Shown piece after piece: positions 1,938 through 27,664 of a stretch of 64,000 bases of DNA. The position numbers were made by a program, and so were the translations under genes. The stretch comes from Candidatus Bathyarchaeia archaeon (GTDB lineage: Archaea; Thermoproteota; Bathyarchaeia; Bathyarchaeales; Bathycorpusculaceae). The notes under the pieces are model-generated. The model was not told the origin of the DNA and ran no database searches. It worked only from the letters and a program-made list of their open reading frames with translations. Every line of letters begins with the position of its first letter. Positions within the stretch are counted from its first letter, which is position 1. Where the stretch lies: contig JBEKOM010000001.1 in NCBI GenBank assembly GCA_049521795.1, forward strand, positions 416,001-480,000, read 5' to 3'.

Positions 1938-2990
1938 GTGAACAAGATAAAAGTCGGCGACAGGTTACTGGGTGAAGGCGAACCAACTTTCATAGTTGCG
2001 GAAATCGGTGTAAACCACAACGGCAGCATCAAAATGGCAAAGAAGCTCATTGACGCCGCCAAAGACGTTGGTTCGGACGCAGTGAAATTCCAAGTCTTCA
2101 AGACAGAAAGAATCGTCACCAAATACGCGGAAAAGGCGGGTTATCAAAAGGAAACGACTGACCCGCAGAAATCACAATACGACATGCTTAAGAAACTGGA
2201 GCTTAAACCCGAGGAGGTTAGGGAACTCCAGGCTTATGCCAAGAAGAGAAGTATCCTTTTTCTGTCATCGGCTTTTGATGAAGAAAGTGTTGACTTGCTG
2301 GATAGTCTCGATGTGCCAGCATTGAAAGTTGCATCTGGTGAGATAACCAACTTGCCATTGCTGCGACATATGGCTGAAAAGAAAAGACCTATAATTCTCT
2401 CAACAGGGTTGAGCAGCTTGGATGAGATAAAGGAAGCATTGGAGGTCTTTGAAGAGAAACGCATAGAAGACATCGTTCTACTCCATTGTGTCACCAGTTA
2501 TCCGGCGAAAGCTGAAGAAGCCAACCTGAAAGTCATGGATTTGTTGAGGCGCAAGTTTGGATTTCCAGTGGGGTTTTCTGATCACACTCTTGGAATTGCG
2601 GTGCCGATAGCAGCTGTTGCGTTGGGTGCTGTGCTGATCGAAAAACACTTAACGCTTGATAAGAAACTGTCAGGCCCAGATCATCGCGCTTCTCTTGAAC
2701 CTGAAGAGTTCAGGCAAATGGTGATCGGTATCAGAGAAGTCCAGAAAGCTTTGGGCAACGGGGTGAAACAACTCACCTTACAGGAACAGGAAATCAGTGA
2801 AGCTGCGAGGAGAAGCATAGTAGCAAGAATAAGGATTCGAAAGGGCACAGTAATACGCGAAGACATGCTTGCCTTCAAGAGACCCGGCATCGGACTCAAA
2901 CCCAAGAATCTACGCAGAGTGATTGGAAAAAAGGCTAAGAAGGATATTGAAGCTGACGAACTGATCACCCTTGAGAAACTCCTGTGGTAG
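1938..2990 (+). CDS. neuB: N-acetylneuraminate / diacetyllegionaminate synthase
   Basis: IVAEIGVNHNG, KFQ, LLHCVTSYP, GFSDHT, IEKH, GPDH motifs and a C-terminal SAF domain (KRPGIG). GTG start chosen at 1938. Confidence 0.92.
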   Translation: MNKIKVGDRLLGEGEPTFIVAEIGVNHNGSIKMAKKLIDAAKDVGSDAVKFQVFKTERIVTKYAEKAGYQKETTDPQKSQYDMLKKLELKPEEVRELQAYAKKRSILFLSSAFDEESVDLLDSLDVPALKVASGEITNLPLLRHMAEKKRPIILSTGLSSLDEIKEALEVFEEKRIEDIVLLHCVTSYPAKAEEANLKVMDLLRRKFGFPVGFSDHTLGIAVPIAAVALGAVLIEKHLTLDKKLSGPDHRASLEPEEFRQMVIGIREVQKALGNGVKQLTLQEQEISEAARRSIVARIRIRKGTVIREDMLAFKRPGIGLKPKNLRRVIGKKAKKDIEADELITLEKLLW

Positions 2991-2994
2991 TTCG

Positions 2995-4140
2995 ATGAGA
3001 AAAATAGCTGTGATAACGGGAACACGGGCCGAATATGGCCTATTCAAGCCTGTTTTGAAGGCCATGGAATCTCATGGTAACCTGCAAGCGTCACTGATCG
3101 TAATCGGAATGCATCTTTCACCCGAATTCGGATACACGGTAGAAGAAATTGAGAAAGACGGTTTCAAAATCGGAGCTAAGATCGCTGCACTCCACGCGGA
3201 AGACACGAAGGCTTCAATGGCCAACAGTCTTGGTAAATGCTTGTCAAAGATAGTCGAAGCCATGGAGAAAATGCGGCCAGACATTCTGCTTGTTCTAGGC
3301 GACCGCAGTGAAATGCTCGTCGGAGCGATTGCGGCGACATACTTGGGCATACCCATAGCTCACATCCATGGAGGAGAAGTCTCGGGCAACGTTGACGAAC
3401 CTGTGAGACACGCTATAACAAAACTTGCACACATACACTTTCCTGCCACCAAGGAAAGCGCAAAGAGAATCATAAAGATGGGAGAGGAACCATGGAGAGT
3501 CCATGTGGTTGGAGCCCCAGGTTTGGATTCCATTCTGAACGAGACGATCCCGGATCCTAAAGAGACGGCCGCAAAGTATGGGCTCAGCATATCCAAGCCC
3601 GTCCTGCTCGTTTTGCAGCATTCTGTTGTTGCAGAGGCAGAGGACGCGGCAAATCAGATGCGCGAAACTTTGGAAGCTGTTAAAGAGTTGAAGCAACGGA
3701 CCGTTATTATATATCCGAATGCGGACGCTGGCGGCAGAAGAATGATAAAAATCATCAGACAATACGAGGAATATCCTTTCGTCAAGTCCTTCAGAAGTGT
3801 GCCGCACGAGGATTACCTAGGCTTGATGAAACTTGCCACCGTTATGATCGGAAACTCCAGCAGCGGAATCATTGAGGCTCCATCATTCGGCTTGCCCGTT
3901 GTCAACATCGGAACTAGGCAAATAGGCAGGCAACGAGCTGGAAACGTAGTTGACGTAGGGTACGATAGAAAAGACATCATTAGTGCCGTGAAAAAAGCAT
4001 TGTGTGACGTGGGCTTCATTGAAAGAGTGAAGCATTGCAAGAATCCTTACGGTGATGGAAAGGCTGGGAAGAGAATTGCAAGGTTTCTGGCCGAGGTGAC
4101 ATTAGGCAGCAAATTGCTGGAAAAGAGGATGACGTATTAG
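2995..4140 (+). CDS. neuC: UDP/GDP-GlcNAc-type 2-epimerase (hydrolysing)
   Basis: GTRAEYG, GMHLS, LGDRSE, HIHGGE, DEPVRHAITKLAH, GNSSSG and YGDG motifs; follows neuB. Confidence 0.92.
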   Translation: MRKIAVITGTRAEYGLFKPVLKAMESHGNLQASLIVIGMHLSPEFGYTVEEIEKDGFKIGAKIAALHAEDTKASMANSLGKCLSKIVEAMEKMRPDILLVLGDRSEMLVGAIAATYLGIPIAHIHGGEVSGNVDEPVRHAITKLAHIHFPATKESAKRIIKMGEEPWRVHVVGAPGLDSILNETIPDPKETAAKYGLSISKPVLLVLQHSVVAEAEDAANQMRETLEAVKELKQRTVIIYPNADAGGRRMIKIIRQYEEYPFVKSFRSVPHEDYLGLMKLATVMIGNSSSGIIEAPSFGLPVVNIGTRQIGRQRAGNVVDVGYDRKDIISAVKKALCDVGFIERVKHCKNPYGDGKAGKRIARFLAEVTLGSKLLEKRMTY

Positions 4141-6986: not shown

Positions 6987-8123
6987 ATGCTTGAGAAAAC
7001 AGCTAGGCGTAAAGTTCTGGTGGTAACTTCAAGGAACGTTCACTATCGCATTGTGGCGCCCGTGATTCAAGAACTGCAGAGAAGACATTGGTATGTTCGT
7101 GTTTTGCGATTTGAGAGGGTGTGGGAAAGGGCGGAAAGTCTTCTTTCGAGAACCACGAGAAGGCGATCTCTCAAATCATTCTACGTAAGACCTACAACAA
7201 GTCGTCCCAACAGGCTCAAGGAGCTTGCATATTCTTTGATTTCTAAGTTTGTTTTTTATACATCAAGGGTTTTGCAGGTTGAGAAACCAGACATAATAAT
7301 CGTCATGACCGACAGCACGCCTCCTTGCAGGATAGCGGTTCTGGCTGGAAGATTGGACAGTATCCCATCCTTGCTTCTGTTGCTCTCGGGCATGATCGGG
7401 CGCAACTATCAATCTCCTAGTTTTATCGTTGACAAGATCGCGGTGCCTGGAGAGTTCGCACGAGAGGTACTCGAAAAGTGCGGTGTTGATAAAGAAAAAC
7501 TTGTAGTAACTGGGTATCCATCATATGACGTGCTGGTAAAGGCCGAAGAGCACTTCAAGAAAAACGAGATATGTAAGAAACTTGGTCTCGATCCTGCGAG
7601 AAAGATAGTTGTTTATACAACGGAAAACCTCCCAGCTCGAGAAAGCAAGATTGTAACTCGTGCCGTATGCACCGCTGTGAAGAGTCTTCAGAATATACAA
7701 TTTATTATTAAGGTTCACCCATCAGAGCTTGATCTATCCACGTACCGCCATGTAACAAGAGACTTGGAGCTGGATGCGTTGATAACAAGGCACGCAGATA
7801 TCTACGAAGTCCTGTACGCATGCGACGCGCTGATTACTGGATTCTCGGCCACCGCGCTTGACGCCATGATTCTTCAGAAGCCTGTGATCACGATCAACCT
7901 CACAGGGCTGGCCGACCCTTTGTCCTTTGCAGAAAGTGGTGCAGCGATAGGAGTAAATAGCGAGGGAGACTTGGAGGGTGAGCTGGAGAAGGTGCTGTAC
8001 AACAAGGAATTGCAGGAGAAACTAAGACGAGGAAGAGAAGCTTTCGTTTTCAAGCATGCCTACAAGCTGGACGGAGAATCCACAGAGAGAGTCGTAACGC
8101 TCGTTGAGAAGATCAGCAAATGA
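6987..8123 (+). CDS. GT-B fold transferase (CDP-glycerol glycerophosphotransferase / nonulosonate transferase-like)
   Basis: VTGYPSYD, IKVHPSE and DALITGFSATALDAMILQKPVI motifs; located in the neuBC cluster. Confidence 0.65.
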   Translation: MLEKTARRKVLVVTSRNVHYRIVAPVIQELQRRHWYVRVLRFERVWERAESLLSRTTRRRSLKSFYVRPTTSRPNRLKELAYSLISKFVFYTSRVLQVEKPDIIIVMTDSTPPCRIAVLAGRLDSIPSLLLLLSGMIGRNYQSPSFIVDKIAVPGEFAREVLEKCGVDKEKLVVTGYPSYDVLVKAEEHFKKNEICKKLGLDPARKIVVYTTENLPARESKIVTRAVCTAVKSLQNIQFIIKVHPSELDLSTYRHVTRDLELDALITRHADIYEVLYACDALITGFSATALDAMILQKPVITINLTGLADPLSFAESGAAIGVNSEGDLEGELEKVLYNKELQEKLRRGREAFVFKHAYKLDGESTERVVTLVEKISK

Positions 8124-15099: not shown

Positions 15100-15963
15100 T
15101 TAACTTCGTAGTCTCTTTGTCAGATCCTGCTGAAGGTCTTCAGCTATTCTCTTGACCTTCCCAACCTCTTCTCTGATTTCTTTGTCCTTAATCTCTTCCT
15201 TTCGCTTCTCGTTTGACTCCAAAATCAGGCGCAGCAACTTGGAGTCGTATCCTTCCAACAACAATTCTACGTTAGGAATTACGCAGTGCCTGCCAATGAC
15301 GTCTGGAAACATAATTGGCCTGTCAAACCTGGCACGATGCGTGTCAGCTAGGAAGTCGACAACTTGGTCAAAATCTGCTCCGAAATGTCTAGAAATGCGG
15401 TGCATCTCCTGAAAACAGGTTATCATCCAAGCTCTGTAAGTAGTTTCAAAGAGCTTGGCTAACTCGGTTTCTGCGCAGCTTTTCAAAACCTTGGTTCTCA
15501 AACCGAAGGCTCTAAAATGCTTGTCGGCAGCTCTTCCAGCTTCAGCGTTAGCGCCGCCGACGTACTTTGTCCAGCGCTTTAGCTCCCATTTCATGTGCTC
15601 TGGGCTTTCATGCACTCCTCGGAATGGAGAGTGCGCGACGAGATAAGGGCAACGTTTGCTCACGCTCTTTGTTGTTCCTGGCGGAACCGTGCTGTTGATG
15701 ATAACGAGTTTCGGTTTGAATCGTTTCGCGTAGTTAACGACAGCACTCACAAATTCTTCTTGCCTTTTGCATGGTATGCAAATGTGAGTGATATCTACTT
15801 TACTTGGAAGCGAGGCCTGTCCAGTTTTTCGCATCTTGGATTCGTCGAGGTCAAATCCATAGACTGCAAAACGCCCACTTTCTTTCAATAAGTCAAATAT
15901 GGCCTGACCGACTTCGCCCAAGCCAACGACTAGGACTCTCTGTTCCGCCAACTGCCGCCACAT
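15100..15963 (-). CDS. Short nucleotide-sugar dehydrogenase (UDP-glucose/GDP-mannose dehydrogenase family)
   Basis: GLGEVG, STVPPGT, HSP, ELAKLFETTY and IGRHC motifs; lacks the usual C-terminal domain. Confidence 0.78.
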   Translation of the reverse strand: MWRQLAEQRVLVVGLGEVGQAIFDLLKESGRFAVYGFDLDESKMRKTGQASLPSKVDITHICIPCKRQEEFVSAVVNYAKRFKPKLVIINSTVPPGTTKSVSKRCPYLVAHSPFRGVHESPEHMKWELKRWTKYVGGANAEAGRAADKHFRAFGLRTKVLKSCAETELAKLFETTYRAWMITCFQEMHRISRHFGADFDQVVDFLADTHRARFDRPIMFPDVIGRHCVIPNVELLLEGYDSKLLRLILESNEKRKEEIKDKEIREEVGKVKRIAEDLQQDLTKRLRS

Positions 15964-16039
15964 CCTTTCAGCGGAAAAAATGGTTCATCAAACTATTTAA
16001 ACTTCATACACCCTACAGCCTTAAGGCGAAGTGGAAGAC

Positions 16040-16543
16040 ATGCCGCAGCCAAAGATGGGAAAAGGCGTAATCGTTGGAAAGAACGTCAAGTTCGGCCACA
16101 ACGTGGTCGTCTGGAACTACGTTGTGATAGGCGATAACGCAAGAATTGGCGACGGAACACGCATCGGCAGCTTCTGCGACATAGGCAAGAATGTCATAAT
16201 GGGTAGTAACTGTAATGTGCAGACTCACGTCACGATCTCGAACGGTTGCAGGATAGGCAATCAGGTGTTTATCGCGCCGAACAGCACGCTTTTGAACGAC
16301 AAGTTTCCAGTCAGCGAGCAGTTGAGCCCGCCAACGATTGAAGACAGTGTCATAGTAGGCGGGTGCGCAGTGATACTGCCAAACGTGACGATCGGCAAAG
16401 GCGCTGTTGTCGCAGCCGGAAGCGTAGTCACGAAAGACGTTGGGTCGGCAGTTGTCGTGAAGGGTTTTCCAGCAGAGCCGATGATGACGCGGAAAGAGTA
16501 TGAAGCAAGGAAGAAGGTCTTCGTCCCGAGGCGGCTACGGTGA
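16040..16543 (+). CDS. Hexapeptide-repeat N-acetyltransferase
   Basis: LbH repeats, IGSFCDIG, LNDKFP and GSVVTKDV. Confidence 0.85.
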   Translation: MPQPKMGKGVIVGKNVKFGHNVVVWNYVVIGDNARIGDGTRIGSFCDIGKNVIMGSNCNVQTHVTISNGCRIGNQVFIAPNSTLLNDKFPVSEQLSPPTIEDSVIVGGCAVILPNVTIGKGAVVAAGSVVTKDVGSAVVVKGFPAEPMMTRKEYEARKKVFVPRRLR

Positions 16544-16547
16544 AAGG

Positions 16548-17534
16548 ATGAAAGTCTGGTACGACGCCTGCACAGGCAAACACGTTAGGTATGGCGCAGC
16601 GATTGCGAAACGTTTGAGAAAGCGTGGTCATGAAGTAATATTCACGACGAGAGAGCATCCTGACACAGTGGCTCTAGGAAAAATACTTGGCGAAAACCCC
16701 ATCGTCATTGGGAAGTACGATCCAGCATCGCTTTATACGCGGTTAGAAGAAAGCGCAAATCGGGTGCTCAGATTTTCAAAAATGTTCAGAGATGGTTCGC
16801 CCCAACTGGCCATCTCGGCCCAGTCTGTGGAGTTGTGCCGGTCTGCTTTTGGTTTAAACATTCCAATAATCGTGACGGCCGATACTCCTTATGCCACAGC
16901 GGTTAACAGGTTGACGATACCTCTAGTAAGCCTGCTTCTAATCTCAGAAGCCATCCCAAAGAGTCTCTTCAAAAAGTACGGAGCACAGAAGATTGTTCAG
17001 TTCAAAGGCGTAGACGAAGTGGCTTGGGCAAAAGACGTCAGCAGACTGAAGGCTCCTGAACTTAGGAGACCCTTGATCGTCGTCAGACAGATGGAGACGC
17101 GAGCTGCGTACGGACTTGGTAAGGGCGATGTCACCGTTGAGGCTGCGCGCAAGCTTTCTTCTCTGGGCACCGTTGTTTTTCTGCCGCGCTACAGCACGCC
17201 TAGAGATAAGAAACTGGTCGTTTTGAACGAGTTTGTGGATTCAACAGGTCTAGCTGCTCAGGCTGATCTGGTTGTGAGCGTGGGAGGGACGATTGCGAGG
17301 GAAGCTGCTTTGCAGGGGACGCCCAGCATCGTGATATCTGAATTTGGCCGTATTCAAGTAAACGAGTACCTCTCGAAAAAGGGCTTTCCACTCTTCATAG
17401 TGAAGCCGTCAGGGGTCATCACTCATGCCAAACGGTGCCTAGGGAAGAAATTCGACGTCAGAGCGAAACTGAAGAGCCTTGAGAATCCTGTTGACGTCAT
17501 CGAAAAAATCATCAAAGAAAAGCAACTCGCCTAG
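16548..17534 (+). CDS. DUF354 family GT-B fold protein
   Basis: MKVWYDACTGKH, FKGVDE and GGTIAREAALQGTP motifs. Confidence 0.75.
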   Translation: MKVWYDACTGKHVRYGAAIAKRLRKRGHEVIFTTREHPDTVALGKILGENPIVIGKYDPASLYTRLEESANRVLRFSKMFRDGSPQLAISAQSVELCRSAFGLNIPIIVTADTPYATAVNRLTIPLVSLLLISEAIPKSLFKKYGAQKIVQFKGVDEVAWAKDVSRLKAPELRRPLIVVRQMETRAAYGLGKGDVTVEAARKLSSLGTVVFLPRYSTPRDKKLVVLNEFVDSTGLAAQADLVVSVGGTIAREAALQGTPSIVISEFGRIQVNEYLSKKGFPLFIVKPSGVITHAKRCLGKKFDVRAKLKSLENPVDVIEKIIKEKQLA

Positions 17535-17542
17535 ACTGTTAG

Positions 17543-17555
17543 GGAAAAATTAAAG
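17543..17555 (+). promoter_or_regulatory. Putative BRE/TATA promoter of tRNA-Val
   Basis: GGAAAAATTAAAG about 30 nt upstream of the tRNA 5' end. Confidence 0.4.
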
Positions 17556-17583
17556 CCAAACCACCCATTCTTTGATGGAATAA

Positions 17584-17661
17584 GGGCCGGTCGTCTAGCT
17601 TGGTTAGGACATTGGCTTTACGAGCCAAAGGTCGCCGGTTCAAGTCCGGCTCGGCCCACCA
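17584..17661 (+). tRNA. trnV: tRNA-Val, anticodon TAC, intronless, CCA encoded
   Basis: Acceptor stem GGGCCGG/TCGGCCC, anticodon arm TTGGC-TTTACGA-GCCAA, T arm GCCGG-TTCAAGT-CCGGC, 3' ACCA. Confidence 0.96.
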
Positions 17662-17741
17662 TTTTATGGGAAGAATCGCTATTCGCTGGATTTTGTTTGA
17701 CGATCCATGCCTCTTCTAGGTTGAGCGTTTATGAGAATCCT

Positions 17742-18902
17742 TCAAGCTAGTTTGATCTGACTGATCTTCAGTTCTTTTCCGCGTCTTTTCAGAAGGACTG
17801 CGCTCAAGATTGCGCCGGCAAGCACGCTAATTGCTAACGCGACATAATAGAACTCAGCTATCTGTGAAGTGGCTTGAGCACCAGATGCTGGGTCGATATG
17901 AAACAGCAGGATATCTGTTGAAGGCGTAGAATTGCTTACGGAAGCCTGCACTTGGACAAGGTATACGCCTATTTCAAGGTTCATTTGGTGAATTGTTTCG
18001 TTGCTTTCCCATTCGTAAATGCCGCTGGCAACAGGTTTTTCCATCATCACATCAGAGACCCATAGAGTGCCGTTTGGATAATAGATTGCAACAGTCACGC
18101 TCGCGTTCGAAACCGTGGCTATTGTTGTGGCATCTTTGACAATCGCATCAAGCCTTATCGCAACGTCCTCTTGATACAGGTAGTCCAGACCACCCCTTAC
18201 CGTCACGACCGTTGTGGGCGGCACGACTTGTTCTTGGCTATCAAGAGAAATTTCTTCTATGTATCCAACAGGCATTGGATAGGATTGACCTCCCAGCTCT
18301 ATCGTGTTCAGATACAATGTCTTCCCAAATCCACGAAATTCGACTCCCCTAGCCTCCAGGGAACCATTAATGTAAATGTCGTAGGTATTCTTCGTTATAT
18401 CCATGACCAATCTGATCTCATACCAAGTATTATTGGAAAATTGAAGCAGGTCGTGAAGGCCACCATCGTCATAGTATCCGATATTTCCGTCAGGAAGGAA
18501 ATAGACGTTGGCTCCATGGAGGTCAGAATCTGCGTAGTGGCTATCATGGATGTAGATATCGAAATAATCCGGATTCTCAACCATCACTGCAAATGAGAAC
18601 ATCAGAGTTCCATACTGGTTGGGAAAATCTCTTCTGACGCGCGCAGATGTAGCGGGCAAGTGTGATTGATCTGTGAATTTGGCTGATTTTCCGCTGCTTC
18701 CGAAATAGGCTGCATCACTTACTACAAAAGAACATATACTTGCGTTTTGGACGGTCCATCCTTGTGGAACAGTTCCTGTGGTCTCTGAGTCAAAGTTTTG
18801 CGAGAAAACATTTGTAGTGCACTCGGCTGGTTTGATGCTGAACCCCAGAATGGAGGTCACAAACATTATCAGAACGATCGCGGAGAGGACCTTCTTTAGC
18901 AT
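17742..18902 (-). CDS. Secreted, C-terminally anchored beta-rich surface protein (ConA/LamG-like domain plus Ig-like domain)
   Basis: N-terminal signal peptide, FSQNFD and NTWYEIRLVMD..TYDIYING motifs, C-terminal TM followed by KRRGK. Confidence 0.65.
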   Translation of the reverse strand: MLKKVLSAIVLIMFVTSILGFSIKPAECTTNVFSQNFDSETTGTVPQGWTVQNASICSFVVSDAAYFGSSGKSAKFTDQSHLPATSARVRRDFPNQYGTLMFSFAVMVENPDYFDIYIHDSHYADSDLHGANVYFLPDGNIGYYDDGGLHDLLQFSNNTWYEIRLVMDITKNTYDIYINGSLEARGVEFRGFGKTLYLNTIELGGQSYPMPVGYIEEISLDSQEQVVPPTTVVTVRGGLDYLYQEDVAIRLDAIVKDATTIATVSNASVTVAIYYPNGTLWVSDVMMEKPVASGIYEWESNETIHQMNLEIGVYLVQVQASVSNSTPSTDILLFHIDPASGAQATSQIAEFYYVALAISVLAGAILSAVLLKRRGKELKISQIKLA

Positions 18903-19382
18903 ACGACTCCCTCTGTAGCATTCTATGTAAAGCTTGCATTATAACTATTGCGGACACTATGTTATGTGCAATATCCCAGTCCAAATGTTGTAGAAGAAAA
19001 CGCAATTGTACACCTGTTGTCTCAGGTTGACGGAGACCCATCTCGACTTGTGCTTTTGTCACAATTGCGCTCAATTTTATAAGTGGTTAGAGAGGTACCC
19101 TCAGACTTTTGAACAAGTGAATAAGCAGACAGATACAGGCAGTCAATGGGCACGCGAGCTCCGAAAGGCCACAGCGAAGAAACGTGGCCGCCAAGGCCGT
19201 TTTTCGAGGTATTTTCTTCCTCTTTTTCAACGGTGAAAAACCAACCGCGGGCAGGTGCGAGGGGAAGTTCTGTGTTATAAGTCTGGTGTTTACTTGGCGC
19301 GCGCGATAAAACTTTACCGTTTGGGTTTGGGGCAAGACTTTAATTCAAACTGATTCAAACTACAAAGTGGAGCCACGGGTCT

Positions 19383-20153
19383 ATGTGGAAAAAGAAAGAA
19401 GAAAAGAAAGAAGAGAAAGAGGAAGATTTGTTGAAGAAGCTATGTGGGAACGACACGAAATTGTATGATCTTCTTAGTCAGAGCTTGTATCTAGATCCTA
19501 AGGAGGCCATATCCAAACCGGATCTCAAGATCCTCGTCGAGGAGGCAGAGAAAAGTGCCGGGGATGAAGATTATCGAGGAGCAATGGAGAAATATAGAAC
19601 GGCATTGGATAAGGCCATTTTTGAGGCCACTCAAAATCCAGGGGAAATGGGTAGATACATTAAGGTCAGTCAAGACCTCGCGTCGAAGACCGCAAAAGTG
19701 ATAGAGAAAGCAAAAGAGAAGGCAAGGAAGGAAGGATTTGCGTCCCCTTCTCTTGAAGGAAGAATCAAATATTATGAATCTATGAGCGAAAGAATTGAAG
19801 ATGTCATAAGAATAGCTTCTCTCTTTTACAACGAGAGATTAGAAGAGTTGGGAGCAAGTGCTCGCGCGCTAGAACGAGAAACAAGAAAAGGAGAGAGAAG
19901 AGGCGCTGAGAGAAAAGAGGAAAAAGATGAGATGGAAGCAAAGGAGAGGCGAGAAGCAAGAAGAAAAGGAATGGGAAGAGGAGAGAGAAAAGAAGCTGAG
20001 AGAGAAGATGAGGAAATAGAGAAGAAAGATGAGGAGAGAGGGAAGGCAAGAAGAAAAGAAGGAATAGAAGCTGAGAGAGAAGAGGATAGGGCAGAGGAGA
20101 GAGAAAAGGAGAGACGAGAGGCGAAAAGAAAAGAAAGGGAGAAACAAGAATAA
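19383..20153 (+). CDS. Hypothetical protein with ER/K-rich C-terminal tail
   Basis: 256-aa ORF; the last ~90 aa are almost entirely E/R/K with repeated EAERE and ERREA(R/K)RK units. Confidence 0.7.
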   Translation: MWKKKEEKKEEKEEDLLKKLCGNDTKLYDLLSQSLYLDPKEAISKPDLKILVEEAEKSAGDEDYRGAMEKYRTALDKAIFEATQNPGEMGRYIKVSQDLASKTAKVIEKAKEKARKEGFASPSLEGRIKYYESMSERIEDVIRIASLFYNERLEELGASARALERETRKGERRGAERKEEKDEMEAKERREARRKGMGRGERKEAEREDEEIEKKDEERGKARRKEGIEAEREEDRAEEREKERREAKRKEREKQE

Positions 20154-20339
20154 CTTAGACAAGACGCACACGCTAAGTGGTGTTTGGGTTTAGGGATAAC
20201 GTCTTATCCCCCGGCTAAATTTCTACAAGTCAGCTGTCTTTTGAAAATTCTTATAATGAAAACTAAACAAGAAAAATGAAAAGAAAAATCGACGTGCACC
20301 TAGTGCACACGACACGTTCGCTAACATACGCGCGCAATA

Positions 20340-21020
20340 CTAGAGAGCCTGGAAGAGCATTTGGTTTCTGTTCTTGTCGGCGTCCTTTATCGTTCCGATC
20401 TTCCTGAGAGAGTAAGTCATTTTTCGAGATTGGTTAATGGGTATTCTGAGATTTTCGGCGAGGTTTCTGTTCGTGAATGGATTGGGGAGGTCTTTGGGTA
20501 AAACTCTGAGGAAATCCATCTTGTTCTCAAACATCACACTTTCAAGAATGCCGATGAGCTTTCTATCTTCTATGCTCGCGCCTTTTCTTCTCCAGCTTCC
20601 TTTTCCATCGTTACACCATATTTCCTCCACCTCAATCATCAGGACCTCGATGCTGAGGTTGCCCCTGGGGAAGAGATCCGATATTCTGATCAATTCACTG
20701 AAAAGATCGTATATGCTGCCTCTCTTTGGGGACATCCTTCTTCCGGTGATTTCTCCGTTGGACGTAGACCTGTGAGCTATCCATTTCTTCTTGGGTATAG
20801 GGTGGGCCAAGCGAACCTTGTGATCCTCGAGCAGACGTCTGAGTTTCGGTTTTATCGCTGAAAAGTTGGCGGTCTGTATTTCGATCAACAGGTCTCCTCG
20901 TACAATGTCCACTATGAAATCGTCCAGTTTGGCTTCTATTCTGTCCCCTGCAAGAAAGTACCATTTCTTTATCGAAGAGTGAAGTGAGCTCTCCCTTCTT
21001 GAGTCAAATGTGTTTTCCAT
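20340..21020 (-). CDS. PD-(D/E)XK nuclease-like protein with C-terminal HTH-like segment
   Basis: E..LH...K, IVDI....IEIQT nuclease-like motif; FTNRNLAENL...RKMTYSL. Confidence 0.6.
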   Translation of the reverse strand: MENTFDSRRESSLHSSIKKWYFLAGDRIEAKLDDFIVDIVRGDLLIEIQTANFSAIKPKLRRLLEDHKVRLAHPIPKKKWIAHRSTSNGEITGRRMSPKRGSIYDLFSELIRISDLFPRGNLSIEVLMIEVEEIWCNDGKGSWRRKGASIEDRKLIGILESVMFENKMDFLRVLPKDLPNPFTNRNLAENLRIPINQSRKMTYSLRKIGTIKDADKNRNQMLFQAL

Positions 21021-21266
21021 CAAAGTTGACGTCCACAGCATTCTCGGTACTGTATGGGTTGCGACCGCATAAGAATACTGCTAAAAAGAAAGTATATGCT
21101 CGCGCGCGAGCACACGACGACGAACGACTAACCTCTTTTCAATCTCTTTGCTACGATATGCCTGCTCAACCACTATCGCACTCACTTATTGATCGTAGAA
21201 GGTAACACAGATTCAATTTCCAACGTGCACGCATGCACCACATTTCGCGGTCGCTTTCTCCAGTTT

Positions 21267-22109
21267 CTATTTCTGGCATTTTGGGCAGACAAACACTTTG
21301 CCTCCTCCAAGACTCAGCTCTTCTATAGGAGTGTGGCAAACTGGACAGTTCTGTTTTCTCATGTTCGGGCCCATGGCTGAAACGTAGCGGCCTTGCTTCT
21401 GATGAAGATCCGAGAACTGGTTTTTGCCGTTCAACCGGATTCTCTCGTGAAGCACAAGTTTGACGGCATCGTAAAGTGCTCTTTGCTCATCTGAGTTTAA
21501 CTCTGAGGCCTTTCTTTTCGGATGCAGTTTAGCTCTGTATATGATGTCTTGAAAGGCGCTGTTACTCAACCCAACCACTACAGCATCTTTTCCAACAAGA
21601 ATCGATTTGAGCGCCTTGTTATTGTCCTGCAAAAGCTTGGAGAAATTGTTGAATGTAAACGTCTCATCTATGGGTGACAGTATATCTGGGTTGAAGTCTC
21701 GTTTGTACATGTAAGAGTCCATAAGCTCATCATCCCTAAGCACGTGGATCCCTCCCATGCTGGTGAGCCTCACCGTCAAAGCAGTTCCGTCAGAGAAATC
21801 TATTCTCAGGTGGAATTCCCTTGGAACGGTTGCTCCATGTGAGTGATAAAAAACTTCGCCGCCGTACTCAGGACTAAGAATGAGGTTCAGCTTCGCATCA
21901 AGTTCTATACGAATAGTGTTACCCCTGGAAGTGACAGATTCAATCTTTCTGCCCATAAGTTGGTTAAAAGATTTGATATCTTTGTTCATGAATCCAATCT
22001 TCTGCAATCGTTCGTAGTCTCGTAAATGATGACTATTGATGCGTTTGCCTTCGAGTTCTTTGTTCATTTGTTCTGCTAGAATTTTGGCTTCTGGAAGTTC
22101 AATACTCAT
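21267..22109 (-). CDS. Fpg/Nei DNA glycosylase-like protein (atypical active site)
   Basis: ELPE N-terminus, H2TH (VGLSN...DIIYRAKLHP), C-terminal CPVC...CPKCQ zinc finger. Confidence 0.8.
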   Translation of the reverse strand: MSIELPEAKILAEQMNKELEGKRINSHHLRDYERLQKIGFMNKDIKSFNQLMGRKIESVTSRGNTIRIELDAKLNLILSPEYGGEVFYHSHGATVPREFHLRIDFSDGTALTVRLTSMGGIHVLRDDELMDSYMYKRDFNPDILSPIDETFTFNNFSKLLQDNNKALKSILVGKDAVVVGLSNSAFQDIIYRAKLHPKRKASELNSDEQRALYDAVKLVLHERIRLNGKNQFSDLHQKQGRYVSAMGPNMRKQNCPVCHTPIEELSLGGGKVFVCPKCQK

Positions 22110-22283
22110 CTTGAGTCTCCATTGTTACTCGTCTTGGCAAACGAGTCCTTAAATGGTTTTGCAAACATCGCGAGCACTGTGGATGCACACGACGAGCCTA
22201 CCTCTTTCCAAACCTCTTAGTTCCCTATGAGCAAAAACCTTATTCATTGTTCTATCTATTCTTGAGTGGTGATTGCATTGGGT

Positions 22284-22370
22284 ATGGGAAGCGCCAAGAA
22301 TAAACCGATGACTAAGAAAGAACGAGAAGAGAAAAGGAAGAAACACAAGGAAAAACGGTTAAAGAAGTAG
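22284..22370 (+). CDS. 28-aa highly basic microprotein MGSAKNKPMTKKEREEKRKKHKEKRLKK
   Basis: Clean ATG...TAG frame with upstream GAGTGGTGA RBS-like sequence; below the ORF-track cutoff. Confidence 0.55.
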   Translation: MGSAKNKPMTKKEREEKRKKHKEKRLKK

Positions 22371-22584
22371 TCTCAGTCATCATGCGTTTATTCTTAACGT
22401 GCTCTATCGAGCGCACGACGACTATCTCTTTTCAACTTCTTTGTTCTTTGAATCCTCTCTGAAACGATATCATTGTTCAACCACTTCTATCATTGTTCGA
22501 TCGATCCATCAGTTTCGATCACGGCAAAGCATGCGCAATTTTAATAGACGTGAGAGCATAGTCTAATCTTAAGGAGGGTGAATT

Positions 22585-22716
22585 GTGCCCAAAGGCAAGA
22601 ATGAGAAAGCTATGGATCATAAACGTCACATGAAATTGCAGAGAGAGAAGGAACTGAAAAGGAAAGAGAAACGGAATGTTGAGCTCCCTGCGGAATATAA
22701 TAAAGGTAAGAAATAG
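22585..22716 (+). CDS. 43-aa basic microprotein MPKGKNEKAMDHKRHMKLQREKELKRKEKRNVELPAEYNKGKK
   Basis: Strong RBS AAGGAGGGTGA just before GTG, TTTTAATA TATA-like box near 22539, clean frame ending in TAG. Confidence 0.65.
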   Translation: MPKGKNEKAMDHKRHMKLQREKELKRKEKRNVELPAEYNKGKK

Positions 22717-23032
22717 CGCGCGAGATTAGCGCAATAGTCTATCTCTTTTCAGTCTCTTAATTCTCTCAAGCCTCTTCATGAGGTAGCCACCTGACACGTC
22801 CCTTGATTAAGTCTGCTATTCTGCAGTGCTTTCGCAAGCTTCCTAGCTTCATTATTGCTTCTTTCAAGGACGCTTCAGAGATTTTTGATGTGCTAGGGAC
22901 ATACTTGGGTATTTTCTTGATGCGTTCTCTGCTCGAGGTCGGTTGAAAACAGTGTCATTAGTGCAGACAAAATTCTCTTATTCGCTGATCTCTTTATATT
23001 GCTAAAAACCCATAAGCATTGAGGTTTGAAAT

Positions 23033-23428
23033 ATGGATCCAACCGTAAAGGCAGGAATTTCCGGCTTTTTGTTGGCAATCGTCATCAACCTCTTTTCGCC
23101 TGTGTTCCTTTATTTTGTTCCCTCTCTTTTGGCTGCAATATTGGCGGTATACTTTTTCAGGCTTGGCACGCTCAAAGACGGACTGGTGGCCGCCTTCATG
23201 GTTTACATCTTTAACGACGGGATTTTGGGCACAGTCAGTCTGGCATCGTTCTATGCGGAGAACAAACCCTACCCATCGTTCAATGTTGACGTTTGGACCA
23301 TGTTCTCCCCATTGGTCTCGGCAGTTACAGCCGTGATTGCGGCGTACGTAGGAGTGTGGCTTACTCAAGTAAGGAAGCCGCCTCCAGGGTTGCCTTCGGC
23401 GCCTTCTCCGCAGTTGCCGCCTGCTTAG
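23033..23428 (+). CDS. Small multi-pass membrane protein
   Basis: About 4 hydrophobic segments and a Pro-rich tail. Confidence 0.7.
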   Translation: MDPTVKAGISGFLLAIVINLFSPVFLYFVPSLLAAILAVYFFRLGTLKDGLVAAFMVYIFNDGILGTVSLASFYAENKPYPSFNVDVWTMFSPLVSAVTAVIAAYVGVWLTQVRKPPPGLPSAPSPQLPPA

Positions 23429-23477
23429 GCGTGTTCCGCCAAAGACTCTAGAGTGAAGAAAGAAGTATTCTAGAATT

Positions 23478-24122
23478 TTAGTTTTCCGCGAATTCTTCTC
23501 CAGGTTTAAGCAGGATTACTTTGGTTTTGGATTTTGCTTCCACGTCGTTCTTGAATTCGCTGGGATTCGTTTTCCACATGTGCATTGGGATGACGAATTC
23601 TGGTTTGATTGCCAACGCCGCTTCTGCGGCCTCAGGGTTGTCCATGGTATAGGTTCCGCCGCTGGGAAGTAACGCGAGGTAGACGTTTCTGAGGTTTCTC
23701 ATCTCAGGAATTAAGTCTGTGTCTCCTGCATGATAGATGGTTTTGTCCCCTATCGTTATCAGATATCCGACTCCGAAGCCTTTCGGATGGAACGGGTTGC
23801 CTGGAGACCTGAACCTCTTGTAGTTGTAAGCTGCTACGGCTTCCACCGTGATGGCTCCGAAAGAAGCTTTTTCTCCGGGCTTAAGCGATTTCACTTTTCC
23901 TCCTATCTTCGAGACGCAATCGGCCGGGGCAATGACTAAGGTGTCTTCTTTTCGGATCTTCTTTATTTTCGACTTGTCACAATGGTCGTCATGGGAGTGG
24001 GAGACCAGTATCAGGTCCGCTTTCTCCTTGTATTCTCCTTCAAAAGGATCGATGTAAATTGTCTTATCATCGGCCTTTATCTCAAAGCTCGCGTGCCCCA
24101 ACCATTTGACTGAAATACCCAT
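23478..24122 (-). CDS. MBL-fold metallo-hydrolase
   Basis: WLGHASF, SHSHDDH, YHAGDT and IPMH motifs. Confidence 0.9.
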   Translation of the reverse strand: MGISVKWLGHASFEIKADDKTIYIDPFEGEYKEKADLILVSHSHDDHCDKSKIKKIRKEDTLVIAPADCVSKIGGKVKSLKPGEKASFGAITVEAVAAYNYKRFRSPGNPFHPKGFGVGYLITIGDKTIYHAGDTDLIPEMRNLRNVYLALLPSGGTYTMDNPEAAEAALAIKPEFVIPMHMWKTNPSEFKNDVEAKSKTKVILLKPGEEFAEN

Positions 24123-24197
24123 CTTAAACCAGCCCAGTGGACGGCTATTTTTGTGGAAGTATTACTTAAAGTCTTCAGGCGCTTTAGGTCATCGGGT

Positions 24198-25061
24198 TTA
24201 ATGAGGCGAGGATCTTTCTCTTTGGAGAAGTTCGTTTACCGCATTGCCGAGGGCATCGCATGCGGCTCGTCTGGTTTCGAGAGAGCCGTCGATCTCTAGG
24301 TTCTCGATCTCTTTCTGTAGATCTGTTGTCTGCTCGATGATGGGCTGCTTCCTCTTCTCGTATTCATCTCGGAGCTTCTCTCCTTCGGCACTGAAGTTTT
24401 GCATAGCTAATTCGAGCTCCCTTTGTTCAGAGTTCAGTCTCTGGGTTGTCTCTGCCTCTTTTTGTGCCTTGGCCTTTTCTGAGAAGCGTCTGAAGATGCC
24501 CGTTTTCATTCGAGCTATGTGATCCAGCTCTTCTTTGAAACCATCAATATTGCTTGACAGCCGCTTGTTTTCATTGGCTTTCCGCCCTTCGATCTCTCTC
24601 GTCTTAGCGGTGTATTCTTCTTCTATTCGTTCAAGAAGAATTCTATGTTCCGAGAGGCCTTTGATAATTCTGTCCAGCGTGGCCTCCTCGCGCCGTCTTT
24701 CCTCAAGGCTGGCTTCAACATTTGTTAGTATCTGTGAACGTTCCTTCAAGAACTGTCCATCCACGCTTATGGTGGGACTTGACTCAAACTCGGACATTAC
24801 GTCTCTCAGGTCTACAAGCCACTGGCCGAAGTACTCGCTGAATGGAGAAAGGGCAAATCTCTGGTTTCCCAGGCTGTGTAGCCTGTTCCGAGTTTTGTCC
24901 GATACTTCTTCGAGGGTCGGAACATGATTCTCCTCTGACACGTAGATGCTGCTCGACCAGCGTTTTTCTCGCGTAGCTTTGGCCTTGGCCTTTTTACGTT
25001 GCTGCCCTCCGTGTCCTCGGCCGGAGCTTCCGGGTGACCTATTCCGCGATTGGTATCCCAT
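24198..25061 (-). CDS. Coiled-coil hypothetical protein with basic N-terminus
   Basis: 287-aa ORF with heptad-like E/K/R/L-rich central and C-terminal region. Confidence 0.7.
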   Translation of the reverse strand: MGYQSRNRSPGSSGRGHGGQQRKKAKAKATREKRWSSSIYVSEENHVPTLEEVSDKTRNRLHSLGNQRFALSPFSEYFGQWLVDLRDVMSEFESSPTISVDGQFLKERSQILTNVEASLEERRREEATLDRIIKGLSEHRILLERIEEEYTAKTREIEGRKANENKRLSSNIDGFKEELDHIARMKTGIFRRFSEKAKAQKEAETTQRLNSEQRELELAMQNFSAEGEKLRDEYEKRKQPIIEQTTDLQKEIENLEIDGSLETRRAACDALGNAVNELLQRERSSPH

Positions 25062-25139
25062 GAAGAGAACCTCTGGTATTTGAGTATTTAAGGCGTTATC
25101 AAGTCTTGGTTTGTGCGACGATTAGCTCGGCTTGGAACG

Positions 25140-25883
25140 TTAGAATAGCACTTGGCAGGGTGTTCCTTCCCTTTCAAAGGCAGCGGCAAGTTCTCTTTTC
25201 TCGGAGGCAAAGAAATCGGCAGTCATTGCGTATTGCAATTTGAATTTTCTGTACACCCAGTCTGCGTAATGATAGTTCATCTTATCGATGAGCACATGGT
25301 CCGTTCTTCTTCTTAGAAGAGCTGGCAGACCTTCTGCTTTCGGCAGCAGCGGTGCTATCATCGCGAAGGTTCTGATGCCTGCTGAACGAAGTTTCATCAG
25401 CGTTTCGATCCTTTCGCTGATCGGCGGCGAGTTGGGTTCAAAGACCTTTCTGACACCGTCGTCTGCTGTGGTAATCGTGACTCCGACTTCTACGTCGTTG
25501 ATTTTCTTGAGCAGGTCTACGTCTCGGTTCACGAGTGAGGATTTTGTCTGAACGGTAACGGGCCAAACGTGTTTCGAGAGAACCATTAGGCACTTCTTCG
25601 TGAGCTCGTATTTCTTCTCCAGAGGTTGGTAAGGGTCGCAGGTTCCACTCATCCAGACTCTGCCCGCTGTCTTCTTTTTCAACTCCGCTTGTAGCAGGCT
25701 AGGTGCATTGATCTTTGCATCCACGAACTCGCCCCACTCTTCCTTGTGACCAGTGTACCTCTTCATAAAACGTGCATAACAGTACGTGCAGCCGTGCTCA
25801 CAACCAATGTAAGGGTTAACGGAATAGTCAAAGACCTTCGATTTTGACAGAATGGTCTTCGCATAGACTTCTTTGACAATCAT
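25140..25883 (-). CDS. Radical SAM protein (SPL-like/Rv2578c-like)
   Basis: NPYIGCEHGCTYCYA, DPYQPLE, TKS and FEP motifs. Confidence 0.88.
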   Translation of the reverse strand: MIVKEVYAKTILSKSKVFDYSVNPYIGCEHGCTYCYARFMKRYTGHKEEWGEFVDAKINAPSLLQAELKKKTAGRVWMSGTCDPYQPLEKKYELTKKCLMVLSKHVWPVTVQTKSSLVNRDVDLLKKINDVEVGVTITTADDGVRKVFEPNSPPISERIETLMKLRSAGIRTFAMIAPLLPKAEGLPALLRRRTDHVLIDKMNYHYADWVYRKFKLQYAMTADFFASEKRELAAAFEREGTPCQVLF

Positions 25884-26083
25884 TTACGGTCAACTACTTC
25901 CAAGAACTGGTTGACGTATGCAAAGAGTTTGGGCGAGGCTCTTGTGGTTCCGGCATGTTTACACTGAAAACAGATATGATGCGGTAGGCTATTAAATGAG
26001 CCCCTTTCATAGTGTGAGCTACGTGCATGGTCGCCGTTGCTTCTATATACCTGAGTTGCTGAAATGAAGTGTCTGTGAGGAAC

Positions 26084-26707: not shown

Positions 26708-27664
26708 ATGGCAGCTAGAAGGATCAGTCCTCTCAATGCGTTATTGATGCTGTGCTTGATCACGTTCTGGGGAAGCTCCTTCGTCGTTGTGAAGATAACG
26801 CTTCTTGAAGGGTTGACACCGATTTCAATCGCGACGTTCAGGTTTCTCCTCGCGAGCGTCATGTTTCTGGCTGCGCTCCTGGTCAACAAAGGCGTTAATC
26901 GCAACTACGCGTTGCGCGTTGAGAACAAGGACTTGCCGAAGCTGCTTCTACTCGCGCTTACAGGCGTCACGTTCTTCTTCGTCATACAGTACACGGGCAT
27001 TCAGATGGCAAGTGCCTCGATGGCCGCAATCTTGGTCTGTCTTCTCTCGCCGATCCTGATCACCGTCTTCTCCGCGCGCATGCTCAAAGAACGTCTGGCA
27101 CGAAGACAGGTTCTCGGAATCGGAGTAGCCGCGGCTGGAACACTCACAGTTATCGCGGGAAGCTCCATGAGCCTCGAGAGTAACACGAGATTCTTCGTCG
27201 GAACTCTAATTCTGCTCTCCACGCCTTTACTTTGGGCAACGTACACCGTGATCGGAAAAAAGGTGATGGAGAAATACAGCCCCTTTCTCGTCTCAGCCTA
27301 CGTGAACATACTTGGCGGCCTGTGTTTACTCCCCTTTGCCACGGCTGAAAACTCCATCGGTAGAATAACGACGATGAGTCTTCAAGGCTGGTCAGCGATC
27401 CTTTATCTAGCCTTCACCTGTTCCCTGCTGGGATATTCTATCTGGCTTTACGTAGCCAACCAGGTCAAGGCGGCAGTGGTCAGTTCATTCATGTTCGCAG
27501 AACCGTTGATAACGGTCATGTTCGCAACCAGGTTTGCAGGGGAAACGGTGACGCTTTTCACGGCGGCAGGTGGCTTGCTGATTTTCATCGGCGTCTACTT
27601 CGTGTCTAGGAAGCAAACAGGGCTGAATCGTAGCCGAGCAGTGCAAGGACCTTCCTCGGGTTAA
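26708..27664 (+). CDS. EamA/DMT family transporter
   Basis: FWGSSF...RF, two EamA repeats, about 10 TM segments. Confidence 0.88.
   Translation: MAARRISPLNALLMLCLITFWGSSFVVVKITLLEGLTPISIATFRFLLASVMFLAALLVNKGVNRNYALRVENKDLPKLLLLALTGVTFFFVIQYTGIQMASASMAAILVCLLSPILITVFSARMLKERLARRQVLGIGVAAAGTLTVIAGSSMSLESNTRFFVGTLILLSTPLLWATYTVIGKKVMEKYSPFLVSAYVNILGGLCLLPFATAENSIGRITTMSLQGWSAILYLAFTCSLLGYSIWLYVANQVKAAVVSSFMFAEPLITVMFATRFAGETVTLFTAAGGLLIFIGVYFVSRKQTGLNRSRAVQGPSSG

Follow-up and report, generated by a model that had tools for sequence, protein, structure and literature searches.

The 64-kb window analysed here, a stretch of the genome of a Candidatus Bathyarchaeia archaeon, contains a short array of single genes separated by same-orientation copies of one hairpin-bearing repeat, and we use the name REP for the repeat family formed by these copies (A, C, B and D in their order along the window). 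Comparison of loci between relatives shows REPs bordering single genes or small groups of genes that have evidently been gained, lost, replaced and re-ordered, with the switch of homology apparently inside or at the REP. A survey of related genomes likewise shows that REP, judging from the matches found, occurs almost only within DNA islands at tRNA-Val in this family of Bathyarchaeota. We lean towards reading REP as a portable terminator or regulatory boundary element that would provide homology for modular shuffling, in the manner of the promoter-early stem-loops (PeSLs) of T4-type phages. REP resembles an integron yet shows none of an integron's defining parts.

The REP element and its copies

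The coordinates and letters given for copies A, C, B and D in the original prediction proved exact, and the copies are homologous: an nhmmer profile of A–D recovers them with E values of 5.3e-14 to 1.4e-10, and the next match in the window genome (a 2.44-Mb assembly of 69 contigs, G000) has an E value of 1.8. Each interval holds one gene in the list of open reading frames (ORFs), as had been noted, namely nuc233, an Fpg-like gene, and ORFs of 28 and 43 aa (pep28 and pep43). Start-to-start spacing is 1077, 224 and 331 nt with the originally reported coordinates and 1074, 227 and 319 nt with the starts of covariance-model matches. The motif GCRCACGACGA has three exact matches in the window (21110, 22185 and 22411), all within 1.3 kb, and six in the whole assembly, three of which lie at the window array; allowing one mismatch, the 64-kb window contains four matches against 1.89 expected. 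The composite motifs (CACGACGA with the CT block, and ACGATAT..CAACCACT) occur in the whole assembly at the window array alone. Copy D was left out when the covariance model of the family, R1, was built, and the model scores it at 33.8 bits (E 1.9e-6). The REP-related features and the genes between them are as follows.

19219–19230, + strand: possible CT-block remnant (12-nt match, the proposed partial copy)
20197–20313, + strand: A-rich left module, perfect hairpin (20294–20308) and ACACGAC, without the CT block (14.9 bits for the hairpin part alone)
20340–21041, − strand: nuc233, a 233-aa protein of no known family; single-gene module (ORF)
21087–21238, + strand: REP copy A, long form (covariance model, 46.7 bits, E 4e-10)
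21267–22109, − strand: Fpg/Nei-family DNA glycosylase, 280 aa; single-gene module (Pfam)
22161–22239, + strand: REP copy C, with the degenerate inverted repeat GAGCAC / TGCAC (covariance model, 59.3 bits)
22284–22370, + strand: pep28, gene for a 28-aa basic protein (full-length matches, 86–100% aa identity across genera)
22388–22500, + strand: REP copy B, with hairpin 22399–22414 including a U·G pair, three CT units and ACGATAT..CAACCACT (71.6 bits, E 3e-17)
22585–22716, + strand: pep43, gene for a 43-aa basic protein (79–91% aa identity in close relatives, 51% in distant ones)
22707–22837, + strand: REP copy D, overlapping the pep43 stop codon (33.8 bits)

That these copies are a chance similarity of CT-rich, low-complexity intergenic DNA is refuted by the profile and covariance-model searches, and we give the idea practically no credence. 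The CT block alone is indeed of low complexity, and beyond its four copies G000 has two weak, hairpin-less matches (C1:651966, E 0.007, and window 45331–45392, 21.6 bits), but the profile E values of 1e-10 to 1e-14 stand against a background of 1.8, and dozens of independent matches with the same order of sub-motifs are found in other genera.

The REP core spans about 70 nt, against about 150 nt in the long form. Read 5' to 3', the element comprises a 6-bp inverted repeat GNGCNC, two or three CT units (each about 18 nt and containing CCTCT), ACGATAT..CAACCACT, AAGGTAAC and often a GCGCGCGC end; in an alignment of 13 of 20 copies from the window and its relatives (A2, which excludes D-type and the weakest copies) the order of the core is inverted repeat, ACACGACGA-like spacer and CT block. 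An A-rich module of about 100 nt is conserved to the left of the hairpin in many copies. Copy A shows the hairpin at 21098–21111, two CT units, ACGATAT..CAACCACT, AAGGTAAC at 21199–21206 and a second hairpin at 21225–21238, the last being an extra hairpin-only copy besides the hairpin at 20294–20308. Copy B differs from A, as had been observed, by one extra CT unit of about 18 nt, and its model match starts 18 nt past the pep28 stop codon. A three-way alignment suggests, no more firmly than that, that copy C could be a left/right hybrid of two parental copies. Copy D has a weak inverted repeat (GCGC..GCGC at 22716–22732), and homology to congeners stops at 22837, the end of this copy. GCGCGCG recurs at REP ends and at module junctions; it has 593 occurrences in the 2.44 Mb of G000, by rough estimate several-fold above the base-composition expectation.

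Two partial copies had also been proposed. The one at 20304 is genuine, since it is the right arm of the perfect hairpin at 20294–20308 followed by ACACGAC; viewed on the minus strand, feature 20197–20313 reads as a hairpin followed by T runs directly past the nuc233 stop codon, and its left module is homologous to stretches of four loci from relatives (L018, L025, L052 and L060). For the one at 19219, the 12-nt match is present, though a match of this size does not by itself demonstrate significance. A CT-block remnant at 19219–19230 is plausible because in G085:C1 a full-length element adjoins the same integrase promoter element that lies beside it in the window.

The repeat had been described as non-palindromic, which is incorrect: a 6-bp inverted repeat with a spacer of 3–5 nt stands at its 5' end, and it was overlooked because each copy was begun at the right arm. 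In A2 90.8% of hairpin cells are paired, compared with 81.7% in shuffles, and none of 500 shuffles attains the observed value; controls in which the helix was slid along the alignment give 7.6–64% paired. Two of the six helix pairs vary on both sides. In a larger alignment (A3; 68 model matches with E up to 1, in 280 kb) the arms take the forms GTGCAC/GTGCAC, GAGCTC/GAGCTC, GTGCTC/GAGCAC, GCGCTC/GAGCGC and GCGCGC/GCGCGC, mostly with the spacer TTC. Judging from these alignments, the REP hairpin is under selection and is maintained by compensatory variants. RNAalifold, run on 11 long-form copies, predicts the 6-bp helix as the sole structure and none beyond it, and single-stranded DNA folding of A–D on both strands is no better than that of shuffles (z −0.78 to +0.65). 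The long form was also considered as a small ORF; this was rejected because the frames that are open in some copies disagree among copies.

Improbable, to our minds, is a role as a transcribed regulatory RNA or leader, which the original prediction had also listed in the form of a shared regulatory RNA. Its 5' hairpin would be followed by two or three CCUCU motifs that imitate the anti-Shine–Dalgarno sequence and block ribosome-binding sites, either in cis or in trans, the copies having multiplied together with the genes for small basic proteins. The CCTCT(T) units are complementary to ribosome-binding sites of the GGAGG/AAGAGG type, several hairpins have TATA-like A/T-rich boxes 20–45 nt upstream (read by eye), and in many genera copies C and B stand ahead of pep28 and pep43 and point the same way; against this, the conserved structure is limited to the 6-bp helix, wobble pairs carry no strand bias, and about half of the copies are without a co-oriented downstream gene (23 of 45 opposite). 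An Rfam scan of 17000–24500 passes the tRNA alone and gives no match to the repeat with E below 3, and paralogues of pep28 elsewhere in G000 stand without the element. Paralogues of pep28 and pep43 that lack a REP lie at C4:13620–13703, C4:120143–120223, C4:110101–110169 and C2:9148–9264.

R1 was run on 60 other genomes, one per genus, and gave matches in 18 of them. REP copies typically cluster on one strand: G043:C3 has five in 5 kb (six with one weaker cmsearch match), and three each are found in G057:C14, G085:C1, G045:C24, G064:C47, G072:C253 and G052:C76. The arrays of relatives are spaced on the same order as the window array. Copy number does not exceed eight model matches per genome, and in G000 all strong copies sit in one 2.5-kb stretch. 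Further copies in the same genome, on which the original prediction had staked its case, are thus lacking in the strict sense in G000; that test was too strict because the REP family is local to such islands, and arrays exist across the family, the gene/repeat/gene layout being a recurrent architecture in 18 of the 60 other genera. An exact-pattern scan of IMG/VR viral contigs returned no match, and it found 15 loci among metagenome contigs, with R1 matching six of the 15 at E up to 0.01. One metagenome contig reads tRNA-Val(GAC), an N-terminal integrase fragment, Int(N), and then four REPs, with one large ORF per interval and a second short ORF in one of them. Six of 14 loci fetched from relatives end at a contig edge and four more have a copy less than 1 kb from a contig start; repeats and strain variation break assemblies in this way, so that array loci are cut by contig ends. 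A literature search, which left supplementary survey tables of archaeal integrons and proviruses outside its range, found no description of REP, and the accessible portion of a survey of Bathyarchaeia viruses does not describe it either.

Gene modules bordered by REPs

Gene content and gene order between copies differ among congeners and among genera, as the locus comparisons make clear. Fpg homologues at seven loci, with one more partial, share no neighbour among themselves or with the window, and homologues of nuc233 in G008:C10 and G003:C14 also have unrelated neighbours. Flank sharing was counted for 53 of the 68 copies of A3, those with an aligned hairpin: among 101 pairs of copies that share at least one flank, 47 share the right only, 49 the left only and five both, so that 96 of 101 differ on one side. 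The cleanest insertion or deletion lies between G004, which has pep28-REP-tail, and G060, which has pep28-REP1-nitroreductase-REP2-same tail; these regions are 92–95% identical, and the genomes belong to different genera. The single REP of G004 is a hybrid, REP1-like to the end of the CT block and REP2-like from ACGATATC on. The order is permuted between G003 (nitroreductase-REP-pep28) and G060 (pep28-REP-nitroreductase-REP), and a REP-228aa-REP unit, 81% identical, occurs in two metagenome contigs with unrelated surroundings. Homology does not switch at one constant point: in one case it does so past the CT block, in others past the first CT unit or at the GCGCGC end. A three-way alignment with copy C suggests, without settling it, a further switch near the hairpin.

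In other comparisons, array segments of L017 and L034, and of L032 and L036, are 91–95% identical at the nucleotide level across different genera. Such near-identical segments suggest recent horizontal spread of island content.

The position of REP relative to genes was examined for the best 55 matches, with neighbours counted within 600 nt. Of 42 upstream neighbours, 27 are co-oriented with REP and 15 opposite, and of 45 downstream neighbours 23 are convergent. The start of the match falls between −9 and +44 nt relative to the stop codon for 19 of the 27 co-oriented neighbours, and seven of these are different, non-pep genes at a distance of 20 nt or less; the hairpin itself usually stands a few to about 20 nt from such a stop codon. 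Viewed on the opposite strand, runs of T5–T7 commonly follow the hairpin, for instance after nuc233 and after the Fpg gene.

In the mechanism we propose, the native role of REP would be transcriptional punctuation, acting as a terminator in one or both directions with A/T-rich promoter-like neighbours. Because the same 70–150 nt or so are repeated in direct orientation, recombination between REPs is possible; a gene and one REP could be looped out and re-inserted at another REP, and general homologous recombination or template switching would suffice for this shuffling of modules. The integrase of the islands, described below, would move whole islands into the tRNA, and we see no sign of its acting on REPs.

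Several observations weigh against this reading. The wobble pairs of the hairpin comprise 9 G·U and 8 A·C and show no strand preference, and because these counts balance, the hairpin is not assignable to the RNA of one strand. T tracts past the hairpin on the REP strand are short (T3–T4), gene ends facing the element by their 3' and 5' sides are near parity (50 and 37), and at least six of the 55 copies, window copy C included, lie between divergent genes, where no terminator is needed. The A/T-rich promoter-like stretches beside REPs were identified by eye only. At the border at 22837 homology to three congeners ends without a REP there. In a change-point scan the switch of homology lies −40 to +80 nt from the hairpin in most pairs (34 of 39 that share the left flank, 22 of 31 that share the right), but choosing the pairs by flank makes the scan partly circular, and it does not resolve the crossover site. 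Copies and genomes are related, so all of these counts are of non-independent events. In G043:C3 a methionyl-tRNA synthetase (MetRS) of 525 aa (L026 7526–9103) sits between two REPs in an array at tRNA-Val(GAC), and because this is a housekeeping-type gene, not all modules need be mobile. The association with the integrase is weak, matches to both features being found in nine of the 60 genomes, to REP only in nine and to the integrase only in 11 (9 of 18 against 11 of 42, one-sided Fisher p 0.07), and three of five loci with an intact integrase gene and tRNA-Val have no REP (L041, L047 and L049).

REP could also be a small non-autonomous mobile element, similar to miniature inverted-repeat or palindrome-associated transposable elements (MITEs or PATEs), that inserts into intergenic DNA of the islands, an alternative that the original prediction had listed in decayed form, the gene/repeat/gene pattern being a by-product of repeated insertion; we think this rather unlikely. 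REP forms a sharp-ended unit, bounded on one side by a hairpin and on the other by a GC palindrome or second hairpin, it lacks a consistent reading frame, length variants and truncated copies exist, and near-identical copies lie at unlinked places in one genome: in G085 two 147-nt REPs with 99.3% identity end sharply at the hairpin and at GCGCGCGC, and their flanks are unrelated. Mobile elements of this type are hard to reconcile with the low copy number, with the confinement of all strong G000 copies to one place and with orthologous copies C, B and D that stay next to pep28 and pep43 from genus to genus. The two best-defined copies showed neither terminal inverted repeats nor target duplications, and ORF clustering showed no recurrent transposase beside the arrays, tnpA and tnpB not having been searched for specifically.

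The gene-capture system raised by the original prediction would make REP a hairpin-recognised recombination site of a dedicated, independent analogue of the integron, with a tyrosine recombinase that puts in and takes out single-gene cassettes beside the tRNA-Val/int junction, and we consider this unlikely. The fuller version, an archaeal cassette platform independent of integrons in which circles of a gene plus REP would be captured at the junction of tRNA-Val and integrase, we consider no less doubtful. Its enzyme might be the suicidal integrase acting in trans, the ribbon-helix-helix fragment Int(N) together with a host enzyme, or some other enzyme, and since cassettes would be excised and captured, near-identical modules in different Bathyarchaeota genera would follow. 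Arrays of uniformly oriented copies, mostly enclosing single genes and lying next to an integrase gene or fragment, speak for it, as do REPs that begin at or just after co-oriented stop codons like attC, the observed insertion or deletion, permutation and re-use at the level of cassettes, the pair of 99.3%-identical copies with unrelated flanks, and a covariation-kept hairpin that fits structure-specific recognition; some archaeal integrases moreover catalyse recombination of low specificity, according to the extracts of PMC8371274. Yet the att sequence of the integrase is the 3' part of the tRNA and not REP, there are integrase elements without REPs and, in nine of 18 genomes, REP arrays without an integrase match, gene orientation is mixed, the switch points differ between cases, and the long attC-like fold is lacking. 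Short identities of 7–9 nt between REP and the anticodon-arm portion of the tRNA-Val att, noticed by eye, carry no weight in our reading. A 1927-nt metagenome contig with REPs at both ends showed no circular overlap of its ends.

The tRNA-Val island and its genes

The position downstream of a tRNA-Val gene, to which attention had been drawn, is meaningful, being the integration site of a family of tyrosine integrases. Arrays downstream of, and co-oriented with, tRNA-Val (TAC or GAC) are found in the window and in L014, L015, L025, L026, L028, L043 and L052. The remaining features of the window island are listed here.

17584–17661, + strand: tRNA-Val(TAC) (ARAGORN; Rfam tRNA, 63 bits)
17742–18902, − strand: 386-aa secreted or lectin-like protein, island cargo (ORF; weak CBM and Laminin_G matches)
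19248–19288, − strand: remnant of the promoter and 5' leader of a suicidal integrase, its ORF gone (sequence identity)
19383–20153, + strand: 256-aa protein with a K/E/R-rich repetitive tail, behaving as an array module (ORF)
22838–26081, no strand: right-hand variable part of the island, in which no REP copy and no attR were found

Clustering of ORFs over all loci gave one recurrent family of 11 members, mostly ORFs of about 90 aa lying antisense over the tRNA. The short tRNA-overlapping ORFs correspond to residues 1 to about 80 of a 354-aa integrase, which matches Phage_integrase (PF00589) and the archaeal Phage_integr_3 (PF16795) and has an N-terminal CcdA-like ribbon-helix-helix match. Intact int genes enclose a stretch of 47–48 nt that matches the 3' part of tRNA-Val (GAC or TAC) exactly or almost so, as seen in six int genes, and the fragments Int(N) and Int(C) are scattered separately across the family, Int(N) standing at the tRNA end in L014, L015, L025, L026, L028 and L052. 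Suicidal integrases of the SSV type, as set out in the accessible text of PMC8371274, carry PF16795 and an att inside their own gene that equals the 3' part of the tRNA; on these features the present integrase family carries the signature of such integrases, targeting tRNA-Val. Because Int(N) keeps its promoter after integration, the fragment might be made as a stand-alone DNA-binding protein. Complete or partial int genes lie at L032:205–1269 (−), at L015:258–1332 and 7476–7751, and at L014:1819–2094.

In the window, the 3' 48 nt of tRNA-Val (17614–17661) are the att sequence of this integrase family, which makes tRNA-Val the island's left border; these 48 nt are found again within an integrase gene of G008:C9 and at an attR in G057:C22. 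The original prediction saw no integrase in the window, and we find neither Int(N) nor Int(C) there; an integrase of this family was not found in G000, nor was a second att copy when one was sought in that genome. The stretch 19248–19288 is 84–93% identical to the sequence directly upstream of the Int(N) start codon in L014, L015, L016 and L025. The window flanks are colinear with G009:C18 at 15832–17661 and from 26082 onward, and the attR of G057:C22 adjoins a homologue of window 26722–27546. By synteny, then, window 17662 to about 26081 appears to be a decayed island that has lost Int and attR. A recombinase beside the arrays, which had been proposed as a thing to look for, is present in relatives, where SSV-type integrases or their fragments adjoin many arrays, though not in G000. 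Of the nine genomes that have both REP and the integrase, six have a REP no more than 5 kb from an Int fragment.

G008:C9 (L015) carries the 48-nt att twice, at 100% and 97% identity to the window tRNA and 7.2 kb apart, one copy being in the tRNA and one in a reconstituted int gene, with three REPs, pep43 and an ABC transporter between them. L015 258–7751 has the form of tandem integrated elements with a complete int re-formed at the junction (frameshift near residue 109); the re-formed gene lies 7.2 kb from a tRNA-Val that bears another Int(N).

Among the genes of the window island, the 386-aa protein is absent from the orthologous place in G009:C18, where the distance from the tRNA to the promoter element is 188 nt. 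The 256-aa protein has a homologue in G009:C13 (87% aa identity) directly preceded by a REP copy; the 3' third of its gene (19876–20139) consists of purine-rich, imperfectly repeated sequence (period roughly 90 nt) that encodes the K/E/R-rich tail. The label "nuclease-like" given to the 233-aa protein finds no support in Pfam, PHROGs or NCBIfam, whereas the Fpg-like assignment is borne out by Pfam H2TH, Fapy_DNA_glyco and zf-FPG, with the NCBIfam fpg match below its cut-off. A Fpg-family gene of L021 (G005:C10, 4957–5876) is split across three frames and is probably a pseudogene. By their conservation pep28 and pep43 are real genes; searches of Pfam, PHROGs, NCBIfam and a protein atlas gave no match for pep28, pep43, nuc233 or the 256-aa protein. 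The right-hand part of the island encodes a 131-aa membrane protein, an MBL-fold hydrolase, a 287-aa coiled-coil protein and a radical-SAM protein.

Across the family the genes between REPs encode a GNAT acetyltransferase, the 525-aa MetRS, nitroreductases, a NERD protein, an M29 peptidase, a NosD/rhodanese protein, a bPH_2 protein and an AsnC regulator; many further ORFs have no family. Both strands carry such genes, which seem to have promoter-like regions of their own, and in the window array the two larger ones, nuc233 and the Fpg gene, run against the direction of the repeat. Domains of defence type (OLD-like TOPRIM, NERD and SIR2_2) are found within arrays or next to them at L028 (G057:C14) 2184–4120 and L026 10015–11082.

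Comparison with known systems

The elements with suicidal integrases, as far as the extracts of PMC8371274 describe them, share with the islands studied here PF16795, an att within int, Int(N) and Int(C) at the ends and a reconstituted int that marks tandems. This likeness concerns the island and not the repeat, and internal punctuation of the REP type is not described for them in those extracts. The integrase here differs by its N-terminal CcdA-like ribbon-helix-helix match, and the hosts come from peat, soil and wetland metagenomes, whereas the same source, in its accessible text, stresses hyperthermophiles. In all but its host lineage the island conforms to the ordinary suicidal-integrase type. 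How accessory genes move is poorly understood in Bathyarchaeota, an abundant and uncultured group. The islands reveal a suicidal integrase family targeting tRNA-Val in organisms of peat, soil and wetland, R1 (hairpin plus CT block) gives a searchable signature of the variable islands of this lineage, and the arrays show exchange, loss and re-ordering of single genes at a conserved intergenic element, sometimes with 90–95% nucleotide identity across genera.

Integrons and the clusters of attC sites lacking integron-integrases (CALINs), archaeal ones included, resemble REP arrays in having repeats of one orientation that lie within 4 kb of each other and mostly enclose a single gene (PMC9668308, in the accessible part), and further in a repeat at the 3' end of co-oriented ORFs, a tyrosine recombinase beside many arrays and variable cassettes. 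The same part of PMC9668308 defines them by IntI with its specific domain and by attC, an imperfect inverted repeat of about 55–140 nt (R''/L''...L'/R') which, as a single strand, forms a long hairpin. Of the integron resemblance claimed originally, the array layout and the variable gene content stand, and the window array has at least two sites less than 4 kb apart; an attC fold, IntI, a single orientation and a fixed switch point do not. The statement that the repeat is not of the attC type holds, its helix being of 6 bp only and its DNA folds no better than chance. The identity of the array-associated integrase as IntI was rejected, since it scores 35.3 bits against TIGR02249 (cut-off 265), over profile positions 2–181 only, and matches PF16795 instead; REP arrays go with PF16795 integrases of the SSV/pTN3/pT26-2 kind and hold genes on both strands, where integrons have one strand. 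Cassettes in one orientation, each an ORF followed by its site, were likewise looked for and not found, in keeping with the 15 opposite upstream neighbours beside 27 co-oriented ones, and no attI and no common promoter are evident. Were a recombinase to act on REP, the arrays would represent a second, independent invention of the integron idea.

CRISPR arrays have short identical repeats with a period of 55–75 nt, and REP is unlike them: its copies are 60–80% alike, spaced from 224 to more than 3000 nt apart and separated by genes, so the earlier statement that the repeat is not a CRISPR repeat is upheld. Membership among MITEs or PATEs was rejected on the single locus of the strong G000 copies, the ceiling of eight matches per genome and the lack of terminal inverted repeats and target duplications at the two best-bounded copies.

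In mosaic temperate (lambdoid) phages, short conserved boundary or linker sequences at module junctions are thought to focus recombination. These linkers are usually homologies at gene ends without a conserved hairpin and do not form dense same-orientation arrays, in which they are unlike REP.

The closest comparison is with PeSLs, "mobile regulatory cassettes" of the hyperplastic regions of T4-type phages, for which the logic of module shuffling has been shown experimentally (PMC2839356 and PMC4122927, in the parts accessible). REP differs, against the same extracts, in belonging to an archaeal chromosomal island and not a phage, in having no sigma-70 promoter and no sequence relationship to PeSLs, in its greater length with a conserved CT-rich block and further sub-motifs, and in that its promoter or terminator role is putative. 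Both are short, repeated intergenic stem-loop motifs of variable regions that mostly border single genes without assigned function, and in both insertions, deletions and replacements are bounded by the motif, with recombination between neighbouring copies as the proposed mechanism. Of these traits, REP shows the stem-loop motif in variable regions and the motif-bounded indels and replacements. If REP is a portable terminator or promoter only, it would be a candidate regulatory part for archaeal genetics, and the PeSL principle would extend from T4-type phages to archaeal chromosomes.

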